Positions 18,529 through 47,197 of a stretch of 64,000 nucleotides of DNA are shown here, in pieces; the stretch's first letter is position 1; each line of letters starts with the position of its first letter. A model generated the notes under the pieces. That model saw only the letters and a program-made list of their open reading frames with translations. It made no database searches and had not been told where the DNA came from. The position numbers and the translations under genes are program-made. Origin of the DNA: Asaia bogorensis (GTDB lineage Bacteria; Cyanobacteriota; Cyanobacteriia; PCC-6307; Cyanobiaceae); contig CALRQW020000001.1 in the NCBI GenBank assembly GCA_943370455.1, forward strand, positions 377,506 to 441,505, written 5' to 3'.

Positions 18529-19560
18529 ATGCACCCCACTGATTCAACGATTCAGCTAGCCCATGGTGGTGGCGGGCACCTCAGTCAGCAGCTGATACAG
18601 AATTTGCTGATGCCTGCCTTTGGCCCAGCCGATGGAGTGCTCCACGATGCGGCAGTTTTTTCCAGCCCTGGACAAAGGCTGGCGTTCACAACCGACTCAT
18701 ATGTGGTGAGGCCGTTGTTCTTCCCAGGGGGCGACATTGGTCGCTTGGCCGTGATCGGTAGCGTGAATGACCTGGCGATGGCGGGAGCCAGGCCCGTAGC
18801 CCTCAGCCTGGGATTGATCCTTGAGGAGGGGCTTCCGATGGACACACTGAAGCGGGTAGTCCGCTCAATCAAAAACGCAGCTGAGCAGTGCGGAGTCAGG
18901 GTGATCACTGGAGATACAAAGGTGGTGGAGCGCGGCAAAGGTGATGGGATTTACATCAATACCAGCGGCATTGGGGTGGTGGAAGTGATCAAGCCGGTTC
19001 ATCCCAGCTCTGTGCAACCAGGCGATGCACTACTGGTAAGCGGTGATCTAGGGCGACATGGCCTGGCGGTACTGATCGCCCGGAATGATCTGGGGATTCG
19101 CAGCCAGCTGGAGAGCGACCTTGCTCCCCTCAACGGGACTGTGGAAGAGTTGATAGCAGCAGGTATTGAGTTGCATTGCCTACGCGATCTCACCCGCGGC
19201 GGCCTCGCAAGTGCCGTGGATGAAATCGCTCGAAGCTCTGGGTGTGGGATGGAGCTAGAGGAAAACAACATTCCCTACGATGCCAACGTGCAACGCGCGT
19301 GTGACCTACTGGGACTGGAGCCACTCAGCATGGCCAATGAGGGCCGGATGCTGGTGATCTGCCCAGAGGAAGATGCAGAGCGTGCCTTGAAAGTCCTACA
19401 GAATCTCAACCCCCTCGCAACACGCGTTGGCGTTGTTCAGGAACGGGACAGCACAACAACATGCTGGGGACACGATTATCCCGTGACTCTGCGCAACAGC
19501 CTAGGAGTGCTGAGGCCCTTAGATCTGGAGCGGGGAGAGCAGCTGCCGCGCATCTGTTGA
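18529..19560 (+). CDS. hypE: Carbamoyl dehydratase HypE
   Basis: LAHGGGG, TTDSYVV.PLFFPGGDIG, GDTKVV, RDLTRGGL, ANEG, C-terminal QLPRIC. Confidence 0.97.
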   Translation: MHPTDSTIQLAHGGGGHLSQQLIQNLLMPAFGPADGVLHDAAVFSSPGQRLAFTTDSYVVRPLFFPGGDIGRLAVIGSVNDLAMAGARPVALSLGLILEEGLPMDTLKRVVRSIKNAAEQCGVRVITGDTKVVERGKGDGIYINTSGIGVVEVIKPVHPSSVQPGDALLVSGDLGRHGLAVLIARNDLGIRSQLESDLAPLNGTVEELIAAGIELHCLRDLTRGGLASAVDEIARSSGCGMELEENNIPYDANVQRACDLLGLEPLSMANEGRMLVICPEEDAERALKVLQNLNPLATRVGVVQERDSTTTCWGHDYPVTLRNSLGVLRPLDLERGEQLPRIC

Positions 19561-19629: not shown

Positions 19630-20370
19630 ATGAAACAGCACCATGAACGAACACTGAATGCACTCTTTGCCCACCCCTTGCACCATAATCTGCGCATGAA
19701 TGACGTTGAAGTGCTGTTGCTTCATCTCGGCATCCACATCGACCATCGATCCGACCACCGCATCAATCTGCAAGCACCGAGCGGCTCGAGAATTGTGCTG
19801 CATGCCGCCTCAGGCAAACATCATCCATTCCTGAGTGAAGATGGCATCTTGCAAATAAGACGCTTCTTAAAGCAGGAGGGGATCACCCCTGAACACCCGA
19901 TCTCGAATGACGTTTACCCCCGTGGCGAACAAGCAAAACGACTAGTAGTTCACGTTGACCACCGGGGTGCACACTTGTGGTGGCTAGAGGGAGATGACGT
20001 CCACACATCCACTCTGCAACCGCATGGCCTATGGAGCAGCCATCAGCACCTCAGCCACCGTCACGATCGAGATATCACTGGACAGCGAGCACCCATAGAC
20101 TTTGAGTTCCTTAACGAGATCAGCCACGCAATTCTGCAAGCAGATCGCATACTCCTGCTGGGCCATGGCCATGGGGAGAGCGATGTTTGCAAGCTTATAA
20201 GTAAACACATAGAGCAACATCATGCAGGTGCCGCAAAATACCTAGAGACAAGAATCCTAAACGACACGGGATGCAGTGACGCCGAACTAATCGCAATTGC
20301 CCATGAACTCTTTGGAAATCCACCACAGCGGAGCCTGCCGAGAGGGACAACGAGGGACACGAAGACATAA
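19630..20370 (+). CDS. His-rich two-domain protein: N-terminal HicA-like domain plus C-terminal eRF1-like/host-attachment (baeRF-type) domain
   Basis: N-term H.RTL.ALFAHP...N.....V..LL..LG...RRFL...GITP; C-term VV.VDHRGA......FL.EI..AI..ADRILL.GHG; 29 His in 246 aa (counted). Confidence 0.6.
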   Translation: MKQHHERTLNALFAHPLHHNLRMNDVEVLLLHLGIHIDHRSDHRINLQAPSGSRIVLHAASGKHHPFLSEDGILQIRRFLKQEGITPEHPISNDVYPRGEQAKRLVVHVDHRGAHLWWLEGDDVHTSTLQPHGLWSSHQHLSHRHDRDITGQRAPIDFEFLNEISHAILQADRILLLGHGHGESDVCKLISKHIEQHHAGAAKYLETRILNDTGCSDAELIAIAHELFGNPPQRSLPRGTTRDTKT

Positions 20371-20511: not shown

Positions 20512-20781
20512 TCAGCGGCGGCGTCCACGGAAGAAACGACCATACGAGTTGGGGGCACTAGGAGCAACGGCAGGTGGAGAAAGAGTGGCAGTGTTATTGC
20601 TGAAGTTGTCATTAAAAGAACCCGCAATGCCACCAGTTGTAGCTTGCGAAGTCAGAGACGGGAAGTAGCCGAGATTAACATTGTTGCCATTACCAAAAGA
20701 AGCGTCATCAAGGATTGAGATGTCGAACAGGCCACCGCCACAGATCAACTGCGCATCAGCATCAGCAAGAAGATAAATCAT
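20512..20781 (-). CDS. Double-glycine-leader secreted peptide precursor 1 (89 aa)
   Basis: From ATG 20781: MIYLLADADAQLICGG|GLFDIS...; leader matches the two neighbouring precursors; has its own terminator. Confidence 0.75.
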   Translation of the reverse strand: MIYLLADADAQLICGGGLFDISILDDASFGNGNNVNLGYFPSLTSQATTGGIAGSFNDNFSNNTATLSPPAVAPSAPNSYGRFFRGRRR

Positions 20782-21283
20782 GAGAATGAACAACGTGAGT
20801 GAATAGAGGACAGGACACATGCCCGCCCTTCTCAGTTGTAGGCCCGAAAGAAGAACACGAAAGCTTCAAAGCAGATGAGCAGCAGTAGCGAGGCTGAGAA
20901 GAATGCAAAGCGTGCAAGGCACTCCCCCAAAAGAACACTACCCAGAAAAGGGAAAGGCATTGCCCCGGCAGTAGCAAGTCACACAAGAAAACCAAGCGAG
21001 CCTGAGAACAACAGCACCAATCAGCCAGACACCCAAAACAGACAAGACAGAAACAGGCAGAACAACATCAGCTCATCAGAATCCAAGACACACGGAAGCG
21101 AAGCCAGATGAACAAGAAGGCATCTAGTCAAGTCAGCAAAAATCAGCAATGAAGACACACGAAAGCACAAGCCAGCACATAAGGATCAAAATGCTGCAGA
21201 AACGATGAAAGATGTTTCAAGCTTCCGGAGAGAGCTAGAACCCACTTGGGCAATGCCCATTTCAACTTTGAACGAACATTCAG

Positions 21284-21583
21284 ATGACCAAGTTCGAACT
21301 TCTGTCTGACTGCCAGGCCGAAATCCTGGCCGGTGGCAACGGCGGCTGGGGCTTCCCCAGCCTGACCAGCAAGACCTCCTCGATGGAGATCAACAATCTG
21401 ATCAGCCAGTCCAACGTCGGCTCCGCATGGGCATCTGGCGCATCCGCCAGCACCGGCGGCCTAGGGGGTGGCTGGTACAAGATGTTCTCGCGCCCTCAGG
21501 AAGTCGAGACCTTTGCTGATGCGACCAACATCCAGAAGAACTTCAACGGAATCAGCAACTTCGGATTCAGCATCGCTGTCTGA
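21284..21583 (+). CDS. Double-glycine-leader secreted peptide precursor 2 (99 aa)
   Basis: MTKFELLSDCQAEILAGG|NGGWGFPSLTS...; G/S/N-rich core without Cys. Confidence 0.85.
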   Translation: MTKFELLSDCQAEILAGGNGGWGFPSLTSKTSSMEINNLISQSNVGSAWASGASASTGGLGGGWYKMFSRPQEVETFADATNIQKNFNGISNFGFSIAV

Positions 21584-21600
21584 GCGAGCCATCTAACAAC

Positions 21601-21627
21601 GGGGCCACAAGCATGTGGCCCCTTTTT
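21601..21627 (+). terminator. Intrinsic terminator after precursor 2
   Basis: GGGGCCACA-AGCA-TGTGGCCCC-TTTTT. Confidence 0.85.
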
Positions 21628-21654
21628 ACGGCTGATCATTCAACCCCCAAGACA

Positions 21655-21876
21655 ATGCAAACACTCAACGATCTTGAGGCCGAAACCCTGTGCGGTGGAA
21701 TTGGCTTTGCGATGCCAACAATCCAGGTGAGCCCGAACATCATTGTGAACACAATCCCGCAGATAAATGCCGGTTCTGCACTGGCTCTCTTTGGCGGAGA
21801 CGCCACCGTAGAGCAAGGCAATGGTTCGCTGCTGTGGAACACCCTGATTACATCGTTATTCAATCTTCGTCGATAG
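21655..21876 (+). CDS. Double-glycine-leader secreted peptide precursor 3 (73 aa)
   Basis: From ATG 21655: MQTLNDLEAETLCGG|IGFAMPTIQVSPNII... Confidence 0.8.
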   Translation: MQTLNDLEAETLCGGIGFAMPTIQVSPNIIVNTIPQINAGSALALFGGDATVEQGNGSLLWNTLITSLFNLRR

Positions 21877-21912
21877 ATCCAAGGTCAGGTTCCTTCAACA
21901 GATCACAGGCCT

Positions 21913-21939
21913 ACGGCTCTGGCTAGCCAGGGCCGTTTT
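21913..21939 (+). terminator. Stem-loop (weak terminator/attenuator) between precursor 3 and the transporter
   Basis: ACGGCTCTGG-CTAG-CCAGGGCCGT-TTT. Confidence 0.55.
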
Positions 21940-21971
21940 CAAAAGACCATTCGTTCGGCCCAGCCGAGCCC

Positions 21972-24197
21972 ATGAAAAGACCTCAACTCAAGCTCAATTC
22001 ACTACGCAGCTTGCGGAAGCGTATACAGACTCTGATCAGCGGGCAGGACACGCACTATGCATGCGTGCGCCAGTTCAACGAGGAAGACTGTGGAGCAGCC
22101 TGCATAGCAACCGTATGTGAGCACTACGGCCAGACAAAAAGCCTGGCTCGGGTACGAGTGTGTGTTGGCACGCTGGCAACAGGCACGACACTGCTGGGAT
22201 TGAAACGAGGGGCCGAGGAACTGGGCTTGCAAGCAAGAGCTGCAAAAGCAGACCTGTCCTTGCTCCAACACCTCAGCGAGATCCCCCTACCCATGATCTG
22301 CCACTGGAATGGTAATCACTGGGTTGTTCTTCATGCTGTGAAAGACAACCATCTCGTGATTGCCGATCCGGCGGTGGGGATTCGGGAAATAGCCAAAGAC
22401 GAGTTTGCAAAGCGTTGGCAGAACGGGGTTGTGCTGTTGGTCGAACCCGACCCTTCACGCTTCAATAAACAGGAAGAAGAATCAGGCCATCGCGGTCTGT
22501 GGGTTCTCACCGAATTCCTGAAACCCTTCAAAGGCCTGCTGGTGCAGGTGCTGATGCTCAACATTGTGATCGGCACTCTGGCGCTGAGCATGCCGGTGTT
22601 GATGCAAATCCTCACCGACGATGTACTGGTACGAGGTGATTACCACATGCTCACCAGCTTGGCCATAGGCATCATGCTGCTCACGGCGTTGCGCAATGGC
22701 CTCGGCTGGGTACAAGGCCACATGGTGGGCCACTTCGGCCAGAAGTTGCAGCTGCAGATGATCATGCACTACGGCCAAAGGCTGTTTCATCTGCCGATCA
22801 ACTACTTCGAAAGCCACCGTAGTGGCGAAGTCGTCAGCCGCATCGGTGATATCGAACACATCAATGGTCTGCTCACCGGTGTGGTCACCGGGCTGCCGAG
22901 TCAGTTCTGCATCGCCACCATTTCACTTATCTGGATGTTCACCTACAGCGCACCACTCACTCTGGCGGCAGTGCTGTGCTACGCGGCTGTGGTGGTGTGC
23001 AATCTGAGCTTTCTACCAGCAGTGCAGTCCAAGATCAAAAAACTCTTGGTGGGCTCTTCGGAAAACCAGGGATATCTGGTGGAGGTGTTTCGAGCGGCCA
23101 CAGTTCTGAAGACAACAGAAGCCACCCCCCAGGCATGGCAGGAATACCAGCGCAACTTCGGCCGGTTGGCGCGGCTGAGCTGGGACACCACAAAACTGAG
23201 ACTGAACGAAAGCACAGCCACCAGCCTGCTCGGGGGTCTCACCTCGATCGCCCTGCTCTGGTACGGCAGCAGCTTTGTGATCAACAGCCAGCTCAGCATT
23301 GGCCAACTGCTGGCCTTCAACGGCATGGGAGCCAATGTGCTCGGTTTTCTGGCAGGGCTCAGCGGCCTCTCTCAGGAGCTGATCACGTCCGGTGTGGTGT
23401 TGCGGCGTCTATCCGAAGTGCTCGAGCGCGATCCAGAAAATGCCAACGAAACCGATAAACACCACGCCGGCATCAGCTCTCAGGCGCCGATTCGCTGCAA
23501 CGACATCAGCTGGCACTATCCCGGCCGCAGAGCCCTACTGGATCATTTCACCCTGGAGATTCCGGGTGGGTGCACCACAGCGCTGATCGGCGAATCGGGT
23601 TGCGGGAAGAGCAGCATCACCAAGCTGATTGCCGGCATCTACCCGCTGGAGCACGGCAGCATCCACTACGGCAGTTTCAGCGCGAGGGATCTCAACCTCG
23701 ACAGCCTGCGCCGGCAGGTGGTGCTAGTGCCGCAGGAATCGCACTTCTTCAACCGCAGCATCTTCGACAACTTCGCCTTCACCCATCCGGGCGTGGATTT
23801 CGCACAGGTGGTCGAGGCTTGCCAGCTGGCCATGGCTGACGACTTCATCCACGACCTGCCCGATGGCTACGGCACGGTGCTGGGTGAATTTGGCGCCAAC
23901 CTCTCAGGCGGACAGAAACAACGCTTAGCCATTGCCCGCGCCCTGATCAACGATCCTCCGGTGCTGATCATGGATGAATCCACATCGGCCCTCGATCCAG
24001 TGCTGGAGCAGCGGCTGATGGATCGCCTGCTCGCCTACCGAAAAGGCCGCACAACGATCCTGGTGAGCCATCGGCCCTCGGTGATTCTGCGAGCCGACTG
24101 GATCGTCTACATCGAGCGCGGGCAGGTGAAGCAGCAAGACAAGCCGAATGCTCTGCGCGAGAGCTCCATGGTCTCCCCTTACCTCACAGCAGCCTGA
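21972..24197 (+). CDS. Peptidase C39-containing ABC transporter (PCAT; type I secretion)
   Basis: Q..EEDCGAAC (catalytic Cys), HWNGNHWVV, ADPA; Walker A GESGCGKS, LSGGQKQR, MDESTSALD. Confidence 0.95.
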   Translation: MKRPQLKLNSLRSLRKRIQTLISGQDTHYACVRQFNEEDCGAACIATVCEHYGQTKSLARVRVCVGTLATGTTLLGLKRGAEELGLQARAAKADLSLLQHLSEIPLPMICHWNGNHWVVLHAVKDNHLVIADPAVGIREIAKDEFAKRWQNGVVLLVEPDPSRFNKQEEESGHRGLWVLTEFLKPFKGLLVQVLMLNIVIGTLALSMPVLMQILTDDVLVRGDYHMLTSLAIGIMLLTALRNGLGWVQGHMVGHFGQKLQLQMIMHYGQRLFHLPINYFESHRSGEVVSRIGDIEHINGLLTGVVTGLPSQFCIATISLIWMFTYSAPLTLAAVLCYAAVVVCNLSFLPAVQSKIKKLLVGSSENQGYLVEVFRAATVLKTTEATPQAWQEYQRNFGRLARLSWDTTKLRLNESTATSLLGGLTSIALLWYGSSFVINSQLSIGQLLAFNGMGANVLGFLAGLSGLSQELITSGVVLRRLSEVLERDPENANETDKHHAGISSQAPIRCNDISWHYPGRRALLDHFTLEIPGGCTTALIGESGCGKSSITKLIAGIYPLEHGSIHYGSFSARDLNLDSLRRQVVLVPQESHFFNRSIFDNFAFTHPGVDFAQVVEACQLAMADDFIHDLPDGYGTVLGEFGANLSGGQKQRLAIARALINDPPVLIMDESTSALDPVLEQRLMDRLLAYRKGRTTILVSHRPSVILRADWIVYIERGQVKQQDKPNALRESSMVSPYLTAA

Positions 24198-24199
24198 CG

Positions 24200-25423
24200 A
24201 TGAGCAACCTCCAACGCCGCAGCGACATCATTCCGGCCCAGCTCACGCCACTGCAGGCCGACGACTTTCTGCCAGAACTCGGGGGGTGGAGCAAAACCCT
24301 CGGCCAGCGAGTGCTCGCCGTTGGAACTGTGAGCGTGCTCGCCCTGGCGGTGTGGCCCTGGCAGGAAACCGTTCGGGCTGCAGGTGTGATCCGACCTGCG
24401 GGTGAAAACACCATCGTGCAAAGCCAGCTCGATGGTGTGTTGGCCAGGGTGTGGGTGAAGGAGAACCAGCAGGTCAAACAAGGAGAACCACTGGCTGAGC
24501 TCGACCGCCGCAGCCTCGACAACGAACGACGCAAGCTGGAAGGGGAGCTCACGCAATCCCTGGCGCAACAACGCGACAGCCGTGCCTCAAGCCTGGATGC
24601 GCAGCAGCAGGCGCAAGCCACCCGGATGTTGAATAGCGCCCAACGGAACTCAGCCCAGAGGGATCTCGATAGCGCTGCCTCCACTGTGCGCTACCGGGAG
24701 ACGGAACTGAAGCGCTACCGCAGCCTGCTCTCCAGTGGGGCCGTGGCCGAAACAGTGATTGAAGAAAAGCAGGCCCAGGCCGTGTTGGCCCGCAATGATT
24801 TCGCCAAAGCACGCCAAGCGATGCGGGAACAGGAGGCCCGTGGTGCGGCTGAACTAGCGCGGCTTGGCCAGGGCTCCAACCAGACCGCGCGAGAGGAACG
24901 GGAACTGACCAAGCAGGTGGAACAAGTCCGAGCGCGCCTGGAGGAAGTGAAGCGGGCATTGCTCAACAGCGTGATCAGAGCACCCAAATCGGGCACGGTG
25001 ATTGTGAGCAACCTCAGGCATGCGCAACAGGTGATCCGCAGCGGAGAGGTTTTGGCACAAATCGCACCGAGCCAGGGAGAGCTGCAGGTGAAGCTGAGCG
25101 TGCCGAGTTCTGATGTGGGCAACATCAAAGCCAATCAGCCTGCCTATCTGCGAATTGCTGGATGCCCTTATCCCGAATTCGGTGTTCTGCAAGCACGGGT
25201 GCTAACCATCTCAGCTGACACGATCAGTCAGAACACTGGCGGCGATGGGCGGAGTCCTTCCGGATTTCAGGTGTCTCTACAGCCTTCCAGCAAACCACTC
25301 AGCAATGGAAATCGGCGCTGCGCATTGCGGCATGGCATGGATGTCCAAGCCGATATCGTGACACGCAAGACAACAGTTCTTGGCTTCATTCTGACAAAGC
25401 TACGACTGTCGACAGGAACCTGA
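24200..25423 (+). CDS. HlyD-family type I secretion membrane fusion protein
   Basis: One TM helix, VQSQLDGVLARVWVKENQQVKQGEPL, long coiled coil, IRAPKSGTV, YPEFG.L...V..IS.D. Confidence 0.93.
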   Translation: MSNLQRRSDIIPAQLTPLQADDFLPELGGWSKTLGQRVLAVGTVSVLALAVWPWQETVRAAGVIRPAGENTIVQSQLDGVLARVWVKENQQVKQGEPLAELDRRSLDNERRKLEGELTQSLAQQRDSRASSLDAQQQAQATRMLNSAQRNSAQRDLDSAASTVRYRETELKRYRSLLSSGAVAETVIEEKQAQAVLARNDFAKARQAMREQEARGAAELARLGQGSNQTAREERELTKQVEQVRARLEEVKRALLNSVIRAPKSGTVIVSNLRHAQQVIRSGEVLAQIAPSQGELQVKLSVPSSDVGNIKANQPAYLRIAGCPYPEFGVLQARVLTISADTISQNTGGDGRSPSGFQVSLQPSSKPLSNGNRRCALRHGMDVQADIVTRKTTVLGFILTKLRLSTGT

Positions 25424-25530
25424 ATAAGAACCTGATCACATCACACTGCAGCAGGTCAGGGGCAGGGATACAGCGATCAACAAGCGACAAGATTCATACG
25501 CTTCTGAGGCATCATCCCACACATCTCAGG

Positions 25531-26214
25531 ATGAATACTGAACCCCAGGTGCTTGATCCCGCTGTTGCAGACCCAATGGTGATTGAGCCCAGTGTTGTTG
25601 AGCCAGCACCCACAGAAACTCTGAATCCCGTTGTGGGTACACCGATTGATCCCATCACGGGCAGCAACGGCAATCCCGGCAGCTCATCAAACACATCGAA
25701 TGGCAATCAGGTTGCCGTCAACTCCAACTTTGACTATTCAGTCCACAACTTCACTGTCTACAGCTACAGCTCGACTACGAATCAAGAGACCCTCAACGCT
25801 CAGATGGGTCAAGCCAACAGCGATCCACAGCTCTCAGACGGCTTCAACTGCGGGACCGGTGCAGCTCTGTTTGGTCGGAGCTACCGATTTGAATCACGCC
25901 AGTTTTTCCGTGGCAATCGCCGCCTCTCACGCGTGGATCGCATCACCAACTTCGAGGCCGAAGCCGGTGACACCCTTGAGCTGTCACGGCGCCTGTTCAA
26001 AGGCATTGGCGAGCTTGACTTTGTGGCCGTTGCCAATCGGAAAGCAAGCCAGCGCGCAGCGCGCACCGACAACGACATCATCTACGAACAATCCACGGGT
26101 CGGCTTTACTTCAATGCCAACTCGGGCGATCGTGGATTTGGAAGCAAGGGTGGCCTGTTTGCCATCTTGGAATCCACACCACTGATCAACGACAGCCACT
26201 TCGTGATCTTCTGA
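25531..26214 (+). CDS. Small secreted protein with a cyanobacterial RTX/hemolysin-type C-terminal domain
   Basis: Pro-rich then N/S/T-rich N-terminus; C-term DRITNFEAEAGDTLEL...IIYEQSTGRLYFNAN....GFG..GGLFAIL. Confidence 0.75.
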   Translation: MNTEPQVLDPAVADPMVIEPSVVEPAPTETLNPVVGTPIDPITGSNGNPGSSSNTSNGNQVAVNSNFDYSVHNFTVYSYSSTTNQETLNAQMGQANSDPQLSDGFNCGTGAALFGRSYRFESRQFFRGNRRLSRVDRITNFEAEAGDTLELSRRLFKGIGELDFVAVANRKASQRAARTDNDIIYEQSTGRLYFNANSGDRGFGSKGGLFAILESTPLINDSHFVIF

Positions 26215-26289: not shown

Positions 26290-27051
26290 TCAAGCCAGGA
26301 TGGCAATCAGCAACATCAACGCCAGGCCACCGGCGAAGCAGGCAAAACCAGGCAATGCCAGCCCTGGTTCAGCCTGGTTTTTGATTTCAGGCACCAAATC
26401 AGATGCTGCAATGTAGATAAAGTTGCCAGCGGCAAACAACACCAAAGGAGCCAGAGAAATCTGCTCGTGCAACCACCAGGCTAAGAAGGCACCTAGCGGA
26501 AATGTGAACGCTGAGACCAAGTTCCAAAACAGCGCTTTGCGAGGTCTCCAGCCGCTGTGCATGAGCACACCAAAATCACCAAGCTCCTGGGGGATCTCAT
26601 GGGCAATTGCAGCCATCCAAGCCGCGATCCCGGCGGGTGGATTGATCAGATAGGTGCTGGCAATCCCAAGGCCTCCGATGAAGTTATGCAGGCCATCACC
26701 CATGAGGATCAACAGGGCTATTGACTCGCGCACCCAGCGATCCTCCTCTCCCAGACGCAGCTGGCTGTGATGCCGATGGGAATGATGCCAATGCAGGAAC
26801 TGCTCCAATGCCAGAAATGCTGTAAAGCCAGCCGCAACCCATTCACCTGATCGCAGCGGATCGAGGACCCGATATCCCTCCGGCAGCATGTGGAACAGCG
26901 CACCACCCAAGAGCGAACCCGCCGCCAGAGAAACCAGCGGCGTGAGGAGCAGCTGTAAGCGCCAAGCTGGAAGCACCAGCGTGATCCCACCCACGAGAGC
27001 CACAAAGCTCATCACCAGGCTGCCGAACAGCAGTGTTCCTTCAGGGCTCAT
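26290..27051 (-). CDS. ZIP-family divalent metal (Zn/Fe/Mn) transporter
   Basis: AAGSLLGGALFHMLPE, His-rich loop HWHHSHRHH, GDGLHNFIGG, AHEIPQELGDFGVL. Confidence 0.93.
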   Translation of the reverse strand: MSPEGTLLFGSLVMSFVALVGGITLVLPAWRLQLLLTPLVSLAAGSLLGGALFHMLPEGYRVLDPLRSGEWVAAGFTAFLALEQFLHWHHSHRHHSQLRLGEEDRWVRESIALLILMGDGLHNFIGGLGIASTYLINPPAGIAAWMAAIAHEIPQELGDFGVLMHSGWRPRKALFWNLVSAFTFPLGAFLAWWLHEQISLAPLVLFAAGNFIYIAASDLVPEIKNQAEPGLALPGFACFAGGLALMLLIAILA

Positions 27052-27470
27052 CCCTGCCACCACAGCCAGGTCTCGCGGTTGAGCAGAAATCCCACAAGCG
27101 TGAGCACCACCATCAGCACCACCTGATCAGCGCGTGAATCAGGAATGCGGATGTCAGCCACAAGATGCGCAAGATTCGTTGTGCTGTACACCACACCCAG
27201 CACAAACTGCGCCATGCGCCACGGCATCCGATTGCTCCAGCCCAGGGGATCAGACACCGCGTGAACGGCCAGAATCATGGCGATCACCGGAATCAGAAAG
27301 TAAACCAGCATCGCCAGAAAGATGCGCGGCAGTTGCGATGGTGAAACTTGGCTCTTGATCTCCACTGAAGCGCCGTGGAAGAGCGGCATCAGGCCCAATT
27401 CCACATGAAACAGCATCAGAAGTAGCCAGGCGCACCACAGCCCAGCCACGCGTAATGCAACAGAGTCCAC
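27048..27470 (-). CDS. Hypothetical membrane protein (about 4 TM)
   Basis: 140 aa hydrophobic ORF, 4-nt overlap with ZIP; LFHVELGLMPLFHG. Confidence 0.7.
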   Translation of the reverse strand: MDSVALRVAGLWCAWLLLMLFHVELGLMPLFHGASVEIKSQVSPSQLPRIFLAMLVYFLIPVIAMILAVHAVSDPLGWSNRMPWRMAQFVLGVVYSTTNLAHLVADIRIPDSRADQVVLMVVLTLVGFLLNRETWLWWQG

Positions 27471-27627
27471 AGATTAGTTGCGTACTCTCCAGTTTCGATC
27501 AGCGATCTCGACTGAGCGGCTACCACATCAACCAGATCAACAGCAGATCTGCCGGCACGGCACAACCAACACAGAAGCAAAGCGCCAAAGACTCTGAAGC
27601 AAGTCTCCGAGTCAGTGTCTGGTGTCT

Positions 27628-29046
27628 ATGGCGCAGCTCCTCGCTGGCACCGATCTGCTGGTCGTGCCCTCGTTCAACGCCGATCCGCGCACCCTGGCCT
27701 GCATCGATGGCTTGAACAGCTGGGCGGAGCGGCACCTTGTGGAGCTGCGCCATCTGCTCGATCCCGGCAATCGGCTGGTGTTCATCACGCCCACCCCCAT
27801 CAGCGAGGGCTGCCTGGAAGCCGTACTCAAGCTGATGCCGGCTGTACCGCCGTCGTGGCTTCGGGAGCGACTGCAGCCGCTGTGTCTGCACGACCATGCT
27901 CCAAGGCCGCTGAGCCACAAACTGCTCGCCAGGCCTCGTTTGCTCGACCAGCTTCGCGGGCAGCTCAGGCCAGGAGCACGGCTGGCCTGTTATTCCGTTT
28001 CACCGGCGGAGATGGCTCTCGCGCAGCTGCTGAACCTGGAACTTGAGGGCACACCGGCATCCCTGTCGGGGTTCGGCAGCAAAGCCGGATCCGCCGAGGT
28101 GTTTGCGCAACTCGGCATGCCCTTTCCGCGCACCACCGTGCTCTGCCACAGCTTGGAGCAACTTCGCGATGCCAGCACTGAACTGCTGGAGCGCCATCGC
28201 GATATCAACAGCCTCGTGGTGAAGCTCAACCGGATGGCCGGCGGGCGGGGCAATGCTCCGCTCGAGCTGGATCTACAGGCTTGGCGGCTGCAGCCACCTC
28301 TGCAGCGCCGCCGGCTGCTGGAGCATGCCGTGCAGCATCTGGCGATGCCGCTGCCCCACTGGCGCGATGAGCTCCTGAGCCATGGAGCGATCGCCCAGGA
28401 ACTGATCGATGGCCGCGCTGGAGCGCTGAGCTCACCCAGCGTGCAGCTCTGGATTGATGGCGATGGAGCAGCACAGCTGGTCTCCACCCATGAGCAATGG
28501 CTGGGGGGCCCCCACGGGCAGAGCTTCAAGGGCTGCCGCTTTCCTGCCCGTTTTGCCTACCGCGAGGAGCTCATGGCCATGGGAGAGCGCCTCGGCCAGC
28601 ACCTGGCCGGGCTGGGCTGCCGAGGGGCCGTGTTGCTGGACGTGCTGGCCAGGCGCCAAGACAACCGCTGGGAGCTATGGGCCATCGAAATCAACCTGCG
28701 CAAAGGGGGCACCACCCATCCGTTTCAGCTGGCAGCCAGTGCCACCGGCGGGCAGTTGGATCGCGCGAGCGGTGAGCTGCGCAGCGCTGATGGGTCGGCG
28801 GTGTTTTACGAAGCCAGCGACGAACTGCGCATGCCCCACTGGCACGGGCTGCTGCCAGAACAACTCCTCGACGACTGGGTACGCCGTGGCCTCTTCTTGA
28901 ACAGCGCCAACCGGCGAGGATGCATCCCCCATCGCCTCGGAGCCCTGAGTGAGCACGGTCTGCTGGGCGCCACGGTGTTGGGACGCAGCCGGCGAGAGGC
29001 CTCAGATCTGATGCGGCAAATGCGCCGCGGGCCACGGCAACCCTGA
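27628..29046 (+). CDS. ATP-grasp peptide ligase PGM1-related protein
   Basis: VVPSF, L.DP..RL.FIT, PRPLS.KLLARPRLL, GSK.GS, VVKLN..AGG.GN, SPSVQ, HEQ.LGG..GQ.F.GC.FPA, AIEINLRKGGTTHP. Confidence 0.8.
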   Translation: MAQLLAGTDLLVVPSFNADPRTLACIDGLNSWAERHLVELRHLLDPGNRLVFITPTPISEGCLEAVLKLMPAVPPSWLRERLQPLCLHDHAPRPLSHKLLARPRLLDQLRGQLRPGARLACYSVSPAEMALAQLLNLELEGTPASLSGFGSKAGSAEVFAQLGMPFPRTTVLCHSLEQLRDASTELLERHRDINSLVVKLNRMAGGRGNAPLELDLQAWRLQPPLQRRRLLEHAVQHLAMPLPHWRDELLSHGAIAQELIDGRAGALSSPSVQLWIDGDGAAQLVSTHEQWLGGPHGQSFKGCRFPARFAYREELMAMGERLGQHLAGLGCRGAVLLDVLARRQDNRWELWAIEINLRKGGTTHPFQLAASATGGQLDRASGELRSADGSAVFYEASDELRMPHWHGLLPEQLLDDWVRRGLFLNSANRRGCIPHRLGALSEHGLLGATVLGRSRREASDLMRQMRRGPRQP

Positions 29047-29100: not shown

Positions 29101-29385
29101 ATGAGCCGATTCCATTCCAAGGCCTACCTCGGGGCAGCTCTGGTCCTCACCCTCACGGCGGGGGCTGCCCAGGCCCAGCCCAGCAGCTTTGAAGAACGGC
29201 GCCAGCTGATGCGGCAGATGAGCCAACAGTTGCAGGTGCGGCTGGAGCAGCGGTTGCGCTGCATCAACCAGGCCAAAACGTTTGCTGATCTGGATCAATG
29301 CCAGCGGGCCAACAGCACCGGCTGGCATCACGGCCCTGGCATGGGTGGTGCGGGCTGGGGTGGCTGGGGCTGCCCGATGTGGTGA
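29101..29385 (+). CDS. Small exported protein (signal peptide, two-Cys helical domain, G/W-rich tail)
   Basis: AALVLTLTAGAAQA signal; RLRCINQA...DQCQR. Confidence 0.7.
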   Translation: MSRFHSKAYLGAALVLTLTAGAAQAQPSSFEERRQLMRQMSQQLQVRLEQRLRCINQAKTFADLDQCQRANSTGWHHGPGMGGAGWGGWGCPMW

Positions 29386-30300: not shown

Positions 30301-30425
30301 TCGGCAACAGCTGCTGTTGAGCGGCGGCGTGGCTCTGCCTGATACAGACCGATAGGAAGAGCCGCGACAACGCCGCTGCCAAACCAGGCAGCCAATTGCA
30401 GATTGGTTGTAGTTGGCCTGTCGGC

Positions 30426-31508
30426 ATGCAGCGATGGCGTCACGCGCTCGGGCGCTGCATCAGCTGGAGTTGGTGCACCACCGCAGGCCTGGCCCTGCTC
30501 ACGCTGCTGATCAGCCTGCTGATCGATGAGCGCTTCAACACAGCACTTGAGCTGAGAAACCTTCCCTGGAGCGTGCTGCCGGTGATCGCCGGTGTGGCAC
30601 TGCTCAACACCAAGCAGGAAGGCTTGCTGGTGGTGCTGTTTCTGGCTCTGGAGATCTCAAGCAACCTCGCCCATGGGACGGGCCACGCAGATGGGCGGGT
30701 TGAAGCGCTGATCTGGGCGCGCCGCAGCCTGATCCTTGTGTGCTGCATCTGGGCCGCCCATGTGCGCTCACAGCTGGAAGACCAACGGCTGAAACTGCAA
30801 GCCAGCCAGGCTGCATTGGAAGAAAAACTGGCCCAGAGCCTGAAGGCCTCCGCCCTGGCCCATGAGCTGCGTCAGCCCCTGAGCCAGCTGCTGCTTCAAA
30901 CCCGGCTACTCCAGCACCGCTTCGAAGAATCAGCCATCAGCAACCCAGCGCTGCAGCAAACGATGGCGGAACTACTGAGCTGCGGTGCTCAGATCAACGA
31001 CCTGATCGAGGCCATCGGCTCACTCCTCAGGGAGTCGGCCACGCCGATGCAACCCGTCGACCTCACCGCAGTGCTCCGTGCCTGCTTGCAGCGGCTGAAA
31101 CCGCTGCTGCAGGCCTCCAGCGTGGAATTGCAACTGCAGCTGCTGCATCCACCAGTGCTGGTGAGCGGAGTGCCCGGGCAACTGGAGATTGCCTGCTGCA
31201 ATCTGCTCAGCAATGCCTGCGAGGCGTTAGACGGGCAACCGCAACCGCGCCGCCTGGCCTGCAGCCTTCAAGCTGAGGCCGGCATGGTTGAGCTGGTGGT
31301 GGCCGACAGCGGCCCGGGCCTAGCCAACACCAACGTGCGCGAACTGTTGATGCGCAGCACCAAACCCCAAGGAATGGGGGTGGGCTTACTCACCGTGCAA
31401 TCGATTGCCTGCCGCCACGGCGGTGCACTGCACCTGGGCCGCTCCAACCCATTGGGGGGAGCGGAAGTGCGTCTCAAACTGCCGCTGGCGAACCCGCGTC
31501 CCACCTGA
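30426..31508 (+). CDS. Membrane sensor histidine kinase
   Basis: N-terminal TM helices, H-box AHELRQPL, N-box NLLSNA, G1 DSGPG, G2 GMGVGL. Confidence 0.9.
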   Translation: MQRWRHALGRCISWSWCTTAGLALLTLLISLLIDERFNTALELRNLPWSVLPVIAGVALLNTKQEGLLVVLFLALEISSNLAHGTGHADGRVEALIWARRSLILVCCIWAAHVRSQLEDQRLKLQASQAALEEKLAQSLKASALAHELRQPLSQLLLQTRLLQHRFEESAISNPALQQTMAELLSCGAQINDLIEAIGSLLRESATPMQPVDLTAVLRACLQRLKPLLQASSVELQLQLLHPPVLVSGVPGQLEIACCNLLSNACEALDGQPQPRRLACSLQAEAGMVELVVADSGPGLANTNVRELLMRSTKPQGMGVGLLTVQSIACRHGGALHLGRSNPLGGAEVRLKLPLANPRPT

Positions 31509-36776: not shown

Positions 36777-36931
36777 GCGCGCAGGGCCCAGGCACTGGCG
36801 CCAGGGTGCGCGCCTCGATCCCCGCTGAACGCCGCAGCCGCAGCATCCCAGCGCCGGCGCTGCGGCTGTGCCGCCCCAACCGCCGGATCCAGGCCAGCGC
36901 CATAAATCACAAGCAGCGATGGGAGCTGGCT

Positions 36932-37042
36932 GTGGTGCCTGTGATTCCGGTGTCTCTGGCGGTGCAGCTCTGCCTGGCCTTGGTGGCTCTCGGCCTGCTG
37001 GTGTTCGCGATGGCCGCCATGCAGCAGCTGTGGAACCGCTAA
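36932..37042 (+). CDS. Putative single-TM small protein (about 36 aa) overlapping the capA start
   Basis: GGGAG RBS at 36921; GTG starts at 36932/36935/36941; hydrophobic VQLCLALVALGLLVFAMAAM. Confidence 0.45.
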   Translation: MVPVIPVSLAVQLCLALVALGLLVFAMAAMQQLWNR

Positions 37043-38199
37043 CCCTCAAGCTGCTGCTGGGGGGTGATCTGATGCTCGGCCGTGGCATCGATCAGCAGAT
37101 GCCCCAGCACTGCGATCCAACCGTGCACGAGGCGGTGGTGCGCGATGCACGCCACTACGCGCAGCTCGCCGAGCAGATCCATGGCCCGATGGCGGCGCCG
37201 TTCCAACCCGCCACACCCTGGGGCCAGAGCCTGGCCTGGATGGAGCAGTTCAACCCCGAGCTGCGGCTGGTGAATCTGGAAACAGCCATCACCACCAGCT
37301 CCAAACCTTGGCCGGGCAAAGGCGTGCACTTCCGCATGCACCCCGCCAACATCACAGCCCTGCAGGCGGCTCGCCTCGATGGCTGCAGCCTGGCCAACAA
37401 CCACAGCCTCGACTGGGGCTTCAATGGCCTGGCCGACACCCTGCGCTGCCTGCGCCAGGCGGGCATCCAGGCCGCCGGCGCAGGCCTCAGCCCCCATCAG
37501 GCACAGCGACCGGCGCGGTGGCAGCTGGGTGATGGCCGCGAGCTGTTGCTGTTCGCCTGGGCCTTCACCAGCAGTGGCGTTCCGCCGGCCTGGGCCGCCC
37601 TGCCCTGCCGCCCCGGCGTGGCCCTGTTGAGCGGGATCAACAACGGCAGCGTGAAATGGATGTGCCGTTGCATCAACCGCCAGCGGCGCCCGGGGGATCG
37701 CGTGGTGGTGGCGTTGCACTGGGGGGCCAATTGGGTGCCGGTGGTGCCGGAGCAACACCGCTGGCTGGCACGCCAACTGATTGAACTGGCCGGGGTGGAT
37801 GTGGTGTTCGGCCATTCCTCCCACCACCCACTGCCCCTGGAGATCCATCAGGGCCGGCTGATCCTCTACGGCTGCGGCGATCTGATCAACGACTACGAAG
37901 GCCTGCCGCCGCGCGACCCCTGGCGCTCTGATCTGGTGTGCCTCTACGGGGTGGAGCTGGAGCGCCGCAGCGGTGCTCTCAGAGGCCTCGAGCTGCAGCC
38001 GTTTCAGCTGCGGGGCTTCCAGCTGCAGGAGGCATCAGCTGCCGATCGCCAACTGCTCGAGCACCAACTGGGCCTGGAAGCCGCTCCGGCGGGTTGGCGT
38101 TGCCGGAGCGAAGGCCACGGCTGGCGGCTGGAACGGCAACGCAGCAGCGCTGCAGCATTGGCACCCCAGCCCCACGCCACCCCGTTGAGCCATCCATAG
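37030..38199 (+). CDS. CapA-family (poly-gamma-glutamate synthesis/metallophosphatase-fold) protein, cytoplasmic Rv0574c-like type
   Basis: GTG 37030: LLLGGDLMLGRGIDQ, VNLETAIT, LANNHSLDWG, LHWGANW, GHSSHH, LYGCGDLINDYEG. Confidence 0.9.
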   Translation: MEPLTLKLLLGGDLMLGRGIDQQMPQHCDPTVHEAVVRDARHYAQLAEQIHGPMAAPFQPATPWGQSLAWMEQFNPELRLVNLETAITTSSKPWPGKGVHFRMHPANITALQAARLDGCSLANNHSLDWGFNGLADTLRCLRQAGIQAAGAGLSPHQAQRPARWQLGDGRELLLFAWAFTSSGVPPAWAALPCRPGVALLSGINNGSVKWMCRCINRQRRPGDRVVVALHWGANWVPVVPEQHRWLARQLIELAGVDVVFGHSSHHPLPLEIHQGRLILYGCGDLINDYEGLPPRDPWRSDLVCLYGVELERRSGALRGLELQPFQLRGFQLQEASAADRQLLEHQLGLEAAPAGWRCRSEGHGWRLERQRSSAAALAPQPHATPLSHP

Positions 38200-45139: not shown

Positions 45140-47197
45140 TCAGGGCCAAGCCTGCAGTGCCAGAGCCTGCGGATCCTGACCACGCCACTGGAGCCGCTTG
45201 AGACAGAGCGAACCGGCACCACGGCTGCGCAGCCAATCCGCCGGCTGTTCGCGCCTCTCACCTGGTGGCTGCCAGCGCACCAACTCCACATCATCGAGAT
45301 CCAGCCATTGCTGACCCGCGCCTGGCGGATCCAGAGCAATGGCAGGACTGACCGCGACAACATGCTCCGGCACCTGGAGATCCAAGCGCACAGGCTGCCA
45401 TCGTCCGTGCGTCCGCAATGGAACCGAGCGCATCACCCGCGCCACGGAAAGCCCCCTCAGGGCGCCATACCAACTGATCTGAACGCGTGGCGTGCTGCCG
45501 GCTGGTCCCCTCAGCCAGGCGAGAAAGGTGAGGCGTTCCCCCGGTTGCACCGCAACGCGATGGAGGGGGCGGAGCAGCACGGGTTGCCGATGCAGGGCAG
45601 AACGCCTCAAGCGCACCCCATAACTCCCGCTGCGTGCCGCACTGCGCTCAACCCGCTGATCGTTGTTGAACAAAGCCCAGAGCACCCCTTCACCGGAGCG
45701 TGCTCCCACCAGCTGATCCTCAAAGTTGCCAACCGCCAGTAGCGAACGCCCCAGCTCCAAAGGCGCATCGCCGCGCCAACCACACACCGTGGCATGGGAA
45801 TTGAACGACCAAAGCCGAGAAGGTTGTGAACCTGCAGCCACAGACAGCCAACGCGTCTGCTGTTGTGCCTGAGCGGAGACGTCCAGCTCCATCACATCAT
45901 CCTGAATGACCCAAGGGGCAGCACTTTTGGCCGCGATTCCCCGCAGAATCCAGCCCGCCAGCTCTCCCGCAGCGGGATGAGGGCGGTAGCGATGCAACAG
46001 CAGCGGGTAGACGATCACCCGCTGCACCACGCCTCGGTGGAGATGCACCTCAAGCAACTGCGACGGGAATGTGCTCCAGAGGGTCTGATCAAAGAGGAAG
46101 TTGCCAAGCCCCAGGGCCACGAGGCTGCGTCCATCCCAATGGAAGCCCCCCAGCACATGGGAGTGATGAATCAACACCAAGGTGGCACCAGCACGGCGGG
46201 CCACGTCCGCCATCTGGGCCATGGGTGGAGTGGGCTCGCTCTGATACTCGTTCCCCCCGTGAAGCATCACCACCACAGGTCCAAGGGCGCGAGCAGCCCG
46301 CACGGCAGCGTTGAGCCGGCTGGCCTCGCAAAGGGCAGCTCCAGGCTTGGATTGCTCAGCAGAAGCGACGTAACTGATCGGGTGCTGACTGCCGTGAATC
46401 GTGGTGCAACCCAACACGGACAACGGCCGTCCGCCAAAGTTGCGCACCGCTGGTCGCCAAGCCTCATCCATCGTGGATCCAGCCCCAAACATGCCCGTGC
46501 CAGGGCGATATCCAGCCAGCTGCAAGGTCTCCAGTGTTGAGGTCAACCCAGACTCGAGAGCATCAAAGATGTGGTTATTGGCCAGACCAACCATGTCGAC
46601 ACCGGCCCGTTGCAAAGCCGCCGGGAGTGCGAGCGAGCTGGCAAACACATAATCCTTTGTGGGATGAAAGGCAGCTGCCCTAAAGCCTTGACGCTCTGCC
46701 ACAGGATCAGGAAATAGCGGGCTTTCCAAGTTCAACAACGTGAGATCTGCTCGGGCCAACAACGGCTGAACGGCCTGGAGCAATCGCTGGTGACCAGCCA
46801 CACCGTCGCCGGGCAGGAGCTGCGGGGCATGGTGTGTCATCGAATCACCGCTGAAGAAACGACGCCCAGCCATCACATCGCCAACGGCATGGAGCACAAC
46901 GGTGTCTGAATCAGCCGGGCTCAAACGCAACAGGAGGGGCAACCCTGGCTGCACAGGGCGCAGCGCCGAGGCATACCCCGCTCGCGAAGCCTCAAGCCAG
47001 CCTGGCCCGGCCGACAGCGACAGGCGAAAACGTCCGTCAACCCCGGTGGAGGTGCGAAGGGAACCGTGGCGAATCTGAACCGCGGCAATCGGCTTGCCAT
47101 CGAGATCAACAACACGACCCGTCACTGAGCCGCCCTGCAATTGGCAAGCCGTGAGCGGCATCGCAACCACCAGAACAGCAACCAGGCTGCGAATCAC
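45140..47197 (-). CDS. Multidomain lipoprotein: carboxypeptidase-regulatory-like domain + CapA domain + C-terminal carbohydrate-binding-like domain
   Basis: GTG start, lipobox LTAC; VTGRVVDLDGKPI...TGVDGRF; AVGDVMAGR, LNLESP, LANNHIFD, LHGGNEY, LGNFLFDQ; GNFED...W...RSG.YGV. Confidence 0.85.
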   Translation of the reverse strand: MIRSLVAVLVVAMPLTACQLQGGSVTGRVVDLDGKPIAAVQIRHGSLRTSTGVDGRFRLSLSAGPGWLEASRAGYASALRPVQPGLPLLLRLSPADSDTVVLHAVGDVMAGRRFFSGDSMTHHAPQLLPGDGVAGHQRLLQAVQPLLARADLTLLNLESPLFPDPVAERQGFRAAAFHPTKDYVFASSLALPAALQRAGVDMVGLANNHIFDALESGLTSTLETLQLAGYRPGTGMFGAGSTMDEAWRPAVRNFGGRPLSVLGCTTIHGSQHPISYVASAEQSKPGAALCEASRLNAAVRAARALGPVVVMLHGGNEYQSEPTPPMAQMADVARRAGATLVLIHHSHVLGGFHWDGRSLVALGLGNFLFDQTLWSTFPSQLLEVHLHRGVVQRVIVYPLLLHRYRPHPAAGELAGWILRGIAAKSAAPWVIQDDVMELDVSAQAQQQTRWLSVAAGSQPSRLWSFNSHATVCGWRGDAPLELGRSLLAVGNFEDQLVGARSGEGVLWALFNNDQRVERSAARSGSYGVRLRRSALHRQPVLLRPLHRVAVQPGERLTFLAWLRGPAGSTPRVQISWYGALRGLSVARVMRSVPLRTHGRWQPVRLDLQVPEHVVAVSPAIALDPPGAGQQWLDLDDVELVRWQPPGERREQPADWLRSRGAGSLCLKRLQWRGQDPQALALQAWP

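Follow-up and report, generated by a model that had tools for sequence, protein, structure and literature searches.

A low-GC cassette of double-glycine peptides and a C39 exporter in picocyanobacteria, with a candidate role at the cell surface or in the matrix

What do planktonic picocyanobacteria release through a dedicated peptide exporter whose small substrate genes have neither a modification gene nor an immunity gene among them? This question is raised by a six-gene cassette at positions 20512–26214 of a 64,000-nt stretch of contig CALRQW020000001.1 (assembly GCA_943370455.1, GTDB family Cyanobiaceae), the whole of which was analysed and is referred to here as the window. The cassette encodes three small proteins with double-glycine (GG) leaders, pep1, pep2 and pep3, an ABC transporter with a peptidase domain (PCAT), an HlyD-family periplasmic adaptor and a 227-aa protein, and nothing else. 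Export of the peptides by the PCAT with cleavage after the GG motif is well supported by sequence comparison, and we moderately favour a structural or surface role of the exported peptides over a role as bacteriocins. All six genes were confirmed where the first-pass annotation, made from the letters of the DNA, had placed them. The features of the cassette are listed below.

20512..20781, minus strand: pep1, 89-aa precursor with a 16-aa GG leader (MIYLLADADAQLICGG) and a 73-aa Cys-free core; accessory third peptide
21284..21583, plus strand: pep2, 99-aa precursor with an 18-aa GG leader and an 81-aa core; major transcript
21655..21876, plus strand: pep3, 73-aa precursor with a 15-aa GG leader and a 58-aa core (IGFAMPTIQVSPNIIVNTIPQINAGSALALFGG...)
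21972..24197, plus strand: PCAT, 741 aa, short-type C39 peptidase, ABC transmembrane domain and ATPase
24200..25423, plus strand: HlyD-family periplasmic adaptor, 407 aa, starting 3 nt past the PCAT stop
25531..26214, plus strand: 227-aa protein, N-terminal half disordered, C-terminal beta-rich module of ~100 aa
20450..20465, minus strand: hairpin with T-run 3′ of pep1, terminator-like
21601..21627, plus strand: GC-rich hairpin (9 bp) with T-run between pep2 and pep3, interpreted as a partial terminator (attenuator)
21192..21259, plus strand: conserved elements 5′ of pep2 in an alignment of four loci, candidate promoter/operator region

Leaders, cores and the exporter

The three peptide genes are tied together by their leaders. 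The motif L.D.[DQE]A[QE].[IL][CA]GG was run against the six-frame translation of the window and against 60 block shuffles, occurring three times in the former and in none of the latter. A looser GG-leader filter is passed by the pep1, pep2 and pep3 open reading frames (ORFs) alone within the 64 kb (shuffle mean 0.27), and the GG leader is kept across 32 pep2 and 26 pep3 homologs. In the LahT150 co-crystal structure leader positions -4, -7 and -12 dock in a hydrophobic groove of the C39 domain. These residues in pep1/pep2/pep3 are I/L/L at -4, A/A/A at -7 and L/L/L at -12, and the leaders conform to the LahT150 recognition rule of hydrophobic residues at these three positions on a helix with a GG end. 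The AlphaFold2 model of pep2, built from 32 sequences, places a helix at residues 4–15 only, the rest being low-confidence coil (mean pLDDT 49.5).

Domain matches of the PCAT comprise C39 (PF03412, E 9e-37), ABC_membrane (PF00664) and ABC_tran (PF00005), with no extra N-terminal domain. The protein aligns end to end with PCAT1 (PDB 4ry2) at E 5e-106, its Gln34/Cys40, the His of NHWVVL and the Asp of IADPA aligning with the PCAT1 motifs DCGAAC, HFVV and VADP; we take the aligned Gln, Cys, His and Asp to be the catalytic residues of C39 peptidases. An exact-sequence look-up of the window PCAT gave no match. The adaptor has its best match in TIGR01843 at 148 bits, which is below cut-off, and the Pfam families HlyD_3 and Biotin_lipoyl_2 also match. 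Export of pep1–3 by the PCAT and cleavage after GG are well supported because the C39 motifs are intact, the leaders fit the LahT150 rule, that of pep2 is modelled as a helix, and a GG peptide gene abuts the PCAT gene in all 35 loci having upstream sequence. The first-pass annotation had proposed three small genes with a common GG leader beside a C39 transporter with intact Cys/His/Asp and an HlyD gene, and had described Cys-free G/S/N/T-rich cores of 58–81 aa; each of these statements stands.

The mature cores of pep1, pep2 and pep3 measure 73, 81 and 58 aa (6.1–8.4 kDa), consist to 50–59 % of G/S/N/T/A/Q, and carry 4–10 aromatic residues and no Cys. With a pI of 6.1–8.6 they are near-neutral to mildly basic and not strongly cationic, and no hydrophobic segment of transmembrane (TM) length was found in mature pep1–3. 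The cores hold alternating strand-like stretches such as IQVSPNIIVNTIPQINAG, and are predicted to be disordered though some of their positions are invariant. Profile alignment of pep2 with pep3 (hhalign probability 91 %, E 9e-7) extends across the leader and the first ~30 core residues, identifying the two by sequence as distant paralogs that share an N-terminal core module. In the pep2 core the N-module (FPSLTSKTSSMEINNLISQSNVGSAWAS) and the C-module (ADATNIQKNFN..NFGFSxAx) are conserved and the Gly-rich middle is variable. Two metatranscriptomes have a high-depth contig in which 79 nt of the Gly-rich middle (21435–21515) are exchanged for a different 79 nt; the pep2 linker varies between strains, and the modules on both sides of it are conserved. 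A likeness of the GNGN/QxN motifs to curli was an impression only and was dropped, there being no Curlin_rpt match.

The true starts of pep1 and pep3 are, from their orthologs, internal start codons of the mechanically called ORFs. The mechanical ORF of pep1 extends to 20820 and the L001 ortholog starts at the equivalent of MIYLL (L001–L031 are labels of homologous loci on metagenome contigs), a start identical in the orthologs of L001–L003 and L027. Within the pep3 ORF an in-frame ATG at 21613 has no ortholog support, the orthologs beginning with MQTL. Intergenic gaps in the cassette are 71–141 nt with one exception, a 463-nt spacer that is neither transcribed nor conserved. This spacer (20821–21283), which separates the divergent pep1 and pep2, is strand-asymmetric in composition (A 40 %, C 26 %, G 22 %, T 12 %), has a counterpart of only 220 nt in L001 and received no metatranscriptome coverage.

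No Pfam or NCBIfam match was obtained for pep1–3 or the 227-aa protein even at E 10, and no PDB match for the peptides; a T6SS_VgrG3-like_C match at E 0.16 was disregarded. The earlier suggestion that the peptides are uncatalogued thus holds for Pfam and NCBIfam. Homolog clusters number 45 for pep2 (46–91 % identity), 41 for pep3 and 98 for the 227-aa protein, and nearly all of their members carry the label 'hypothetical protein' and come from metagenomes of lakes, rivers, estuaries and in some cases the sea; cluster look-ups returned 'hypothetical protein' plus one 'Cyanobacteriota bacterium' label. In scans of species-representative genomes the pep2 profile matched 32 pattern stretches of which none was confirmed, and a degenerate DNA pattern gave a single match in an unrelated Oscillospiraceae genome. 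No LanM, YcaO, radical SAM, ATP-grasp or other modification enzyme is encoded inside the cassette, and as far as gene content shows the peptides are unmodified, as had been proposed.

Distribution, expression and divergence of the cassette

A metagenome scan with the PCAT returned 30 further loci at 59–93 % identity, and all loci were then searched with profiles. The gene directly 5′ of the PCAT gene in all 35 loci mentioned above belongs to the pep3 family, and a pep2-family gene lies ahead of pep3 in 24 loci. pep1 is found in five loci only (the window, L001–L003 and L027) and is missing from L004, L007 and most others; L011 has a different third peptide at the pep1 position. The 227-aa gene stands 3′ of HlyD in 10 of the 13 loci with enough downstream sequence. 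The three without it are distant cassettes (PCAT identity 61–67 %), which lie in unrelated genomic contexts and carry one to four tandem GG peptides of related or further families. Exporters 59–67 % identical accompany two to four different GG peptides each in L016 (4693–5870), L031 (1297–2135), L019 (2268–2816) and L011 (2971–3234), and the peptides of the distant cassettes share a PQxNxGxA motif and hydrophobic C-terminal ends. To judge from their sequences the peptides look like part of a larger, diversified superfamily.

The limits of the cassette follow from a comparison of three kinds of locus. On long contigs a HypF-HypC-PFOR-DHODH-HypD-HypE series is followed by a ~246-aa protein and then by the cassette. 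Loci of the window type have the cassette between the 246-aa gene and a gene pair encoding a ZIP zinc transporter and a 140-aa protein, loci of the L007 type have it on the opposite side of the ZIP/140-aa pair, and L009 and L010 (8001–8414 each) retain intact flanks from which the cassette is deleted, leaving only a 137-aa remnant of the 227-aa gene that corresponds to the C-terminal module. The last two are a natural cassette-less comparator. The 246-aa, ZIP, 140-aa and ATP-grasp genes are therefore flank and the cassette is pep2-pep3-PCAT-HlyD-227aa, with pep1 ahead of it in some loci.

Many contigs of lake and brackish-water picocyanobacteria hold the cassette and others have it deleted, and its GC content lies 7–15 points under that of the flanks in every locus; the window is ~67 % GC and falls to 51–60 % over the 18–28 kb stretch. 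It is an accessory island showing presence/absence variation, in a hot spot beside the hyp genes. A tRNA, an Rfam family or a flanking direct repeat was looked for as an island marker and none was found. DNA-metagenome depth is ~3–5 times lower from HypE onwards, absence and divergence being inseparable on this measure. In run X1 the source of the window appears at 131x as an 87-kb contig, which is identical to it over the 19 kb compared.

Sequence of pep2-pep3 is present in many freshwater metatranscriptomes. Metatranscriptome contigs of several freshwater runs were placed on the window and their word depth was taken as a rough measure of expression, related strains being pooled at ≥90–93 % identity. 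Contig word depth was 57–378 for pep2, 8–25 for pep3, 4.5–23.5 for pep1, 0–7 for the PCAT and about 0–2.5 for the hyp genes (HypD/HypE). The pep2 depth is 10–100 times that of the exporter, an order of magnitude consistent in three runs, and the earlier expectation of an abundant product is borne out at the RNA level. Single RNA contigs span pep2, pep3 and the start of the PCAT gene. Depth falls 4–25 fold at the 21601–21627 hairpin, and some contigs read through to the PCAT start.

RNA coverage begins near 21271–21298. Upstream of it are TGCTGCAGAAAC (21192–21203), TAGAAC (21236–21241) and the palindrome TTGGGCAATGCCCA (21246–21259), and in four divergent loci (the window, L001, L004 and L007) these elements are invariant as TGCTGCAGAA, TA[GA]AAC and a palindrome TTGGGC-N3/4-GCCC. 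They may represent a promoter with an operator, or a 5′ hairpin.

Selection on the cassette was compared gene by gene. The ratio dN/dS is 0.06–0.09 for the PCAT, 0.09–0.13 for HlyD, 0.13–0.2 for HypE, 0.16–0.25 for the 227-aa gene and 0.3–0.5 for pep2 in the majority of pairs (up to 0.83), and purifying selection acts on the peptides. In the same genome pairs, at similar dS, the PCAT (21972–24197) retains 88–90 % amino acid identity against 73–77 % for HypE (18529–19560), which suggests either that the exporter is very strongly constrained or that lineages have exchanged the cassette.

Possible structural, toxic and signalling roles

The kind of cluster is a known one. The group III bacteriocin-type cluster of cyanobacteria (Wang, Fewer & Sivonen 2011) includes ebfG/pteB, and the features of that group are found here, namely a short-type C39 ABC transporter without CAP_ED, an HlyD protein and adjacent precursors, with no SurA, LanM, S8 peptidase or second ABC transporter. 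What is new are the three peptide families, the C-terminal module of the 227-aa protein and the conserved pairing with that protein. EbfG1-4/PteB of Synechococcus elongatus PCC 7942 similarly has tandem small GG-leader genes beside a short-type C39 exporter in a cluster type with HlyD, precursors of ~9–10 kDa with mature parts of 6–7 kDa, and a cluster type described as having no modification enzymes or immunity gene. Secretion of EbfG proteins depends on the cysteine of PteB; amyloid is formed by EbfG1-3, and EbfG4 is located on the cell surface and in the matrix. In sequence no homology could be shown: mature EbfG is reported to have no homologs in other cyanobacteria (Parnasa et al.), its hot-spot motif A[FI]NI[GS] is present in none of 58 family members (32 pep2, 26 pep3) and neither of two pep1 cores (window, L001), and local alignment against three published EbfG N-terminal peptides, the comparison being limited to these fragments and the motif, gave trivial scores only. 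The first-pass description of the peptides as EbfG-like thus holds for the type of cluster and found no support in the motif and the fragments compared. There are further differences: the pep families are widespread in planktonic picocyanobacteria, the pep genes show high expression in situ while planktonic cultures of the wild type repress ebfG, and near-lineage cassettes add the 227-aa protein with its tail of putative secretion type.

The account that we tentatively prefer, as somewhat short of probable when taken in full, is that the cassette exports unmodified peptides for an EbfG-like assembly on the surface or in the matrix, by analogy with that system, and not for killing that would also threaten the producer. 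pep2 and pep3 would be transcribed from a promoter just 5′ of pep2, and pep1, if present, divergently; a hairpin terminator after pep2 would hold the peptide message 10–100 times above that of the machinery. The 15–18 aa amphipathic leader would be bound by the C39 domain of the PCAT through positions -4, -7 and -12 and cut after Gly-Gly, and a PCAT dimer together with HlyD and an outer-membrane channel encoded elsewhere would expel the unmodified cores of 58–81 aa in one step. These steps of transcription, attenuation, leader cleavage and export are supported by sequence, comparative and RNA data. Beyond them we infer that the Cys-free, G/S/N/T/Q-rich and aromatic-studded cores, disordered as monomers, may self-assemble or co-assemble on the cell surface or in the matrix, so that an EbfG-like function would have been reached with unrelated sequences. 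Amyloid or matrix behaviour is suggested by analogy, and the 227-aa protein would probably be exported too and act as a partner or anchor.

Several lines of evidence favour this account. No small membrane ORF is conserved beside the peptide genes in four genomic contexts, although one is the rule for class II microcins and Cdz, and this favours a non-toxic extracellular role. Assembly is favoured because the cores are near-neutral or mildly basic and of low complexity, with strand-like alternation, aromatic residues and positions that are invariant despite predicted disorder. It is also favoured since the two paralogs are co-inherited, their shared N-terminal core module being what would fit co-assembly, since expression looks stoichiometric, not catalytic or signalling, and since matrix and surface proteins are the products of the one cyanobacterial cluster of this type that has been characterised.

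The part assigned to the 227-aa protein follows from its conserved position after HlyD and from a C-terminal module of the kind found in secreted proteins. Its N-terminal half is acidic, Pro-rich and disordered, with a conserved DPITG...NTSNGNQVAVNS motif, and AlphaFold2 models the C-terminal domain as beta-rich at a pLDDT of 60–80. The first-pass annotation had spoken of an RTX tail. No GGxGxD/RTX nonapeptide (PF00353) was found in the protein by a regular-expression search or in Pfam to E 10, a profile search of PDB with the family gave 0 matches at E 10, and a Foldseek search with the model returned nothing significant, AprA standing at rank 13 with E 1.6. The term holds loosely, in that a profile of the last 110 residues matches 2113 representative proteins at E ≤ 0.001, mostly at the extreme C-terminus of chains of 100–2600 aa. 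Of nine module-bearing examples scanned with Pfam, four gave no match, one holds 12 stretches of RTX repeats, and the other four match cadherin, two of them above cut-off; two of the cadherin-matching proteins have LRR or SBBP as well. A truncated homolog of the 227-aa protein is labelled 'Ca2+-binding RTX toxin-like' by JGI, a label also carried by the remnant in L009/L010. The module fits a type-I-secretion-style tail, and is what the protein has in common with the one RTX-repeat protein of the nine; the RTX-type substrates of type I secretion differ in having the nonapeptide that is lacking here. RTX substrates are normally paired with exporters lacking an active C39 domain. That one PCAT/HlyD pair exports both the GG-leader peptides and the 227-aa protein, which jointly build a composite extracellular or surface structure with the 227-aa protein as anchor or nucleator and the paralogous peptides co-polymerising, is a larger claim that we consider distinctly unlikely. 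Two resemblances of the protein to pep1 were set aside as chance: a 19-nt inverted repeat that links the two genes (GGLF[D/A]I) is not conserved at the protein level, and the likeness of the pep1 C-terminus (SYGRFFRGRRR) to SYRFESRQFFRGNRR of the 227-aa protein is not kept in L001.

A number of observations weigh against an assembly role. Its main alternative is that pep2 and pep3, with or without pep1, are unmodified bacteriocins which kill related picocyanobacteria. They could do so as diffusible class II microcin-like toxins or as a two-peptide, possibly surface-retained and contact-dependent system like CdzC/D, with immunity encoded outside the cassette (e.g. by the 140-aa TM protein) or not needed. 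No homology to EbfG has been shown and its hot-spot motif is absent; the link of the 227-aa protein to this exporter is one of gene order, and cassettes at a greater distance do not have its gene. As a low-GC island the cassette shows presence/absence variation and has a natural deletion variant, the peptides diverge 3–5 times faster than the exporter (dN 0.21–0.34 vs 0.06–0.08; dN/dS 0.3–0.5), and the repertoire varies between loci from one to four tandem peptides with extra families. Such island behaviour, fast divergence and variable repertoire fit bacteriocin arsenals equally well. The set of GG leader, PCAT and membrane fusion protein is canonical for class II microcins, which are 5–10 kDa and mostly unmodified, carry a 15–18 aa GG signal and are cut and exported by a PCAT, a membrane fusion protein and TolC; mature sizes of 6–8.5 kDa and a gene beside the PCAT and membrane fusion protein are shared with MccV, MccL and MccN and their CvaB/CvaA exporter. 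The co-conserved pep2/pep3 pair recalls two-peptide systems. The glycine-zipper motif GxxxGxxxG of Cdz toxins is present, in single occurrences, in 12 of 26 pep3 and 5 of 32 pep2 members, so that zippers are partial in the former and rare in the latter. The 140-aa protein, which has at least three TM segments and lies within one gene of the cassette in most closer loci extending far enough and is always near it in the close lineages, could be an immunity protein that is kept even after loss of the cassette. Against a toxic role, the adjacent small membrane immunity gene that is the rule for class II microcins and Cdz was not found: the four contexts (window, L011, L016, L019, L021, L031) have no conserved small TM ORF next to the peptide genes, and L031, with four peptide genes, has none in 2.4 kb upstream. 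Hydrophobic minus-strand ORFs in the 463-nt spacer were considered as immunity genes and rejected, being neither conserved nor covered by RNA. The 140-aa gene overlaps the ZIP gene, outlives the cassette and is absent from the distant cassettes; the earlier statement that no immunity gene is nearby is thus right for the cassette itself and has to be qualified for this multi-TM protein 0.8 kb downstream. The cores are neither cationic nor amphipathic and have no hydrophobic stretch of TM length. CdzABCDI of Caulobacter crescentus, whose rationale is seen in the small benefit that diffusible toxins bring planktonic cells, has long hydrophobic glycine zippers and the CdzI immunity gene, and neither extended hydrophobic zipper repeats of the CdzC kind nor a CdzI-like ORF is found here. 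A further difference from the class II microcins is that the host here is a cyanobacterium. In sequence terms the locus is not a full class II microcin locus, not Cdz-like, not RTX and not a locus for peptides made on the ribosome and modified after translation (RiPPs). The first-pass annotation had hedged between matrix and bacteriocin, and the lack of an immunity gene in four contexts tilts this towards a non-toxic extracellular role; we regard the bacteriocin explanation as unlikely, and yet as the strongest competitor.

Amyloid-forming class II microcins that build biofilm exist, so structural and toxic roles can coincide, and the peptides might both form fibres that structure aggregates and act as toxins, like MccAB1 of A. 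baumannii or MccE492. Features of both roles co-exist in the cassette. MccAB1 and MccE492 are likewise small PCAT-exported peptides, export being predicted here, with self-assembly and biofilm formation as features of those microcins; they differ in their GAV/GAA motifs, which are essentially absent here (0 of 32 pep2 and 2 of 26 pep3 members), and in having immunity and accessory (cupin) genes. A dual function inherits the gaps of both parent explanations, including the lack of an immunity gene in the cassette, and seems to us improbable. Least probable of all is that the peptides are secreted signals, whether of the pheromone or quorum type or, in line with a proposal made for cyanobacterial exporters of the HetC type, for differentiation. 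The gene of a two-component sensor kinase does lie 4 kb downstream (30396..31508), but across contexts the cassette holds no conserved sensor or regulator, the cores of 58–81 aa are far above typical pheromone length, and the very high transcript level and low-complexity composition better suit a stoichiometric material. Of these explanations, assembly at the surface or in the matrix is the one we continue to prefer.

Flanking genes and significance for picocyanobacteria

The genes that border the cassette, and a second low-GC stretch of the window, contain the following features.

26290–27063, minus strand: ZIP zinc-transporter gene, its start overlapped by the 140-aa gene
27048..27470, minus strand: 140-aa protein with at least three TM segments and no known family, 0.8 kb downstream of the cassette
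27622..29046, plus strand: ATP-grasp protein with pre-ATP-grasp domain, best match BesA at 129 bits, far below cut-off
29101–29385, plus strand: 94-aa protein with a signal peptide and a Gly/His/Met/Trp-rich tail (GWHHGPGMGGAGWGGWGCPMW)
36868–38199: PGA_cap protein
45140–47197, minus strand: PGA_cap protein
47374–48570: PgsB, above the NCBIfam cut-off
48399–49553: CapC

The ZIP/140-aa pair flanks the cassette on either side in different genomes, and L001, which has lost ZIP, and L009, which has lost the cassette, both retain the 140-aa gene. BesA is an L-propargylglycine--L-glutamate ligase. The ATP-grasp gene is a conserved flank and not part of the cassette since it is also present in cassette-less loci; it is absent from other cassette contexts. 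The 94-aa protein is conserved in L001 and L009 and has no Pfam match, and its RNA depth of 41 in X27 is comparatively high; as we read it, it resembles periplasmic metal-binding proteins. Beside it are a LysR-type gene and a sensor kinase whose best match, below threshold, is ZraS. Upstream of the cassette the conserved His-rich 246-aa protein (19630–20370, plus strand), of no known family, always follows HypE whether or not the cassette is present. The PgsB, CapC and PGA_cap genes form a poly-gamma-glutamate capsule-type set ~20 kb from the cassette, another extracellular-polymer locus.

Picocyanobacteria are major primary producers of lakes and estuaries. Among them the cassette is widespread but is optional from strain to strain, and in natural communities the transcript level of its main peptide far exceeds that of neighbouring genes. 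Should the peptides be structural, the idea drawn from EbfG, that small proteins with a GG motif serve as matrix or surface material, would reach from one laboratory model to planktonic picocyanobacteria and would offer a molecular handle on aggregation and microcolony formation. Were the 227-aa protein a second substrate of the same exporter, the composite structure would rank among the most highly transcribed accessory functions of planktonic picocyanobacteria in lakes and could affect how the cells form microcolonies, resist grazing or phages, and sink. If the peptides act as toxins instead, they would be the first picocyanobacterial weapons resembling class II microcins, without the usual adjacent immunity gene. 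Either way the three peptide families and the unannotated C-terminal module, with its >2,000 matches at E ≤ 0.001, deserve family definitions.

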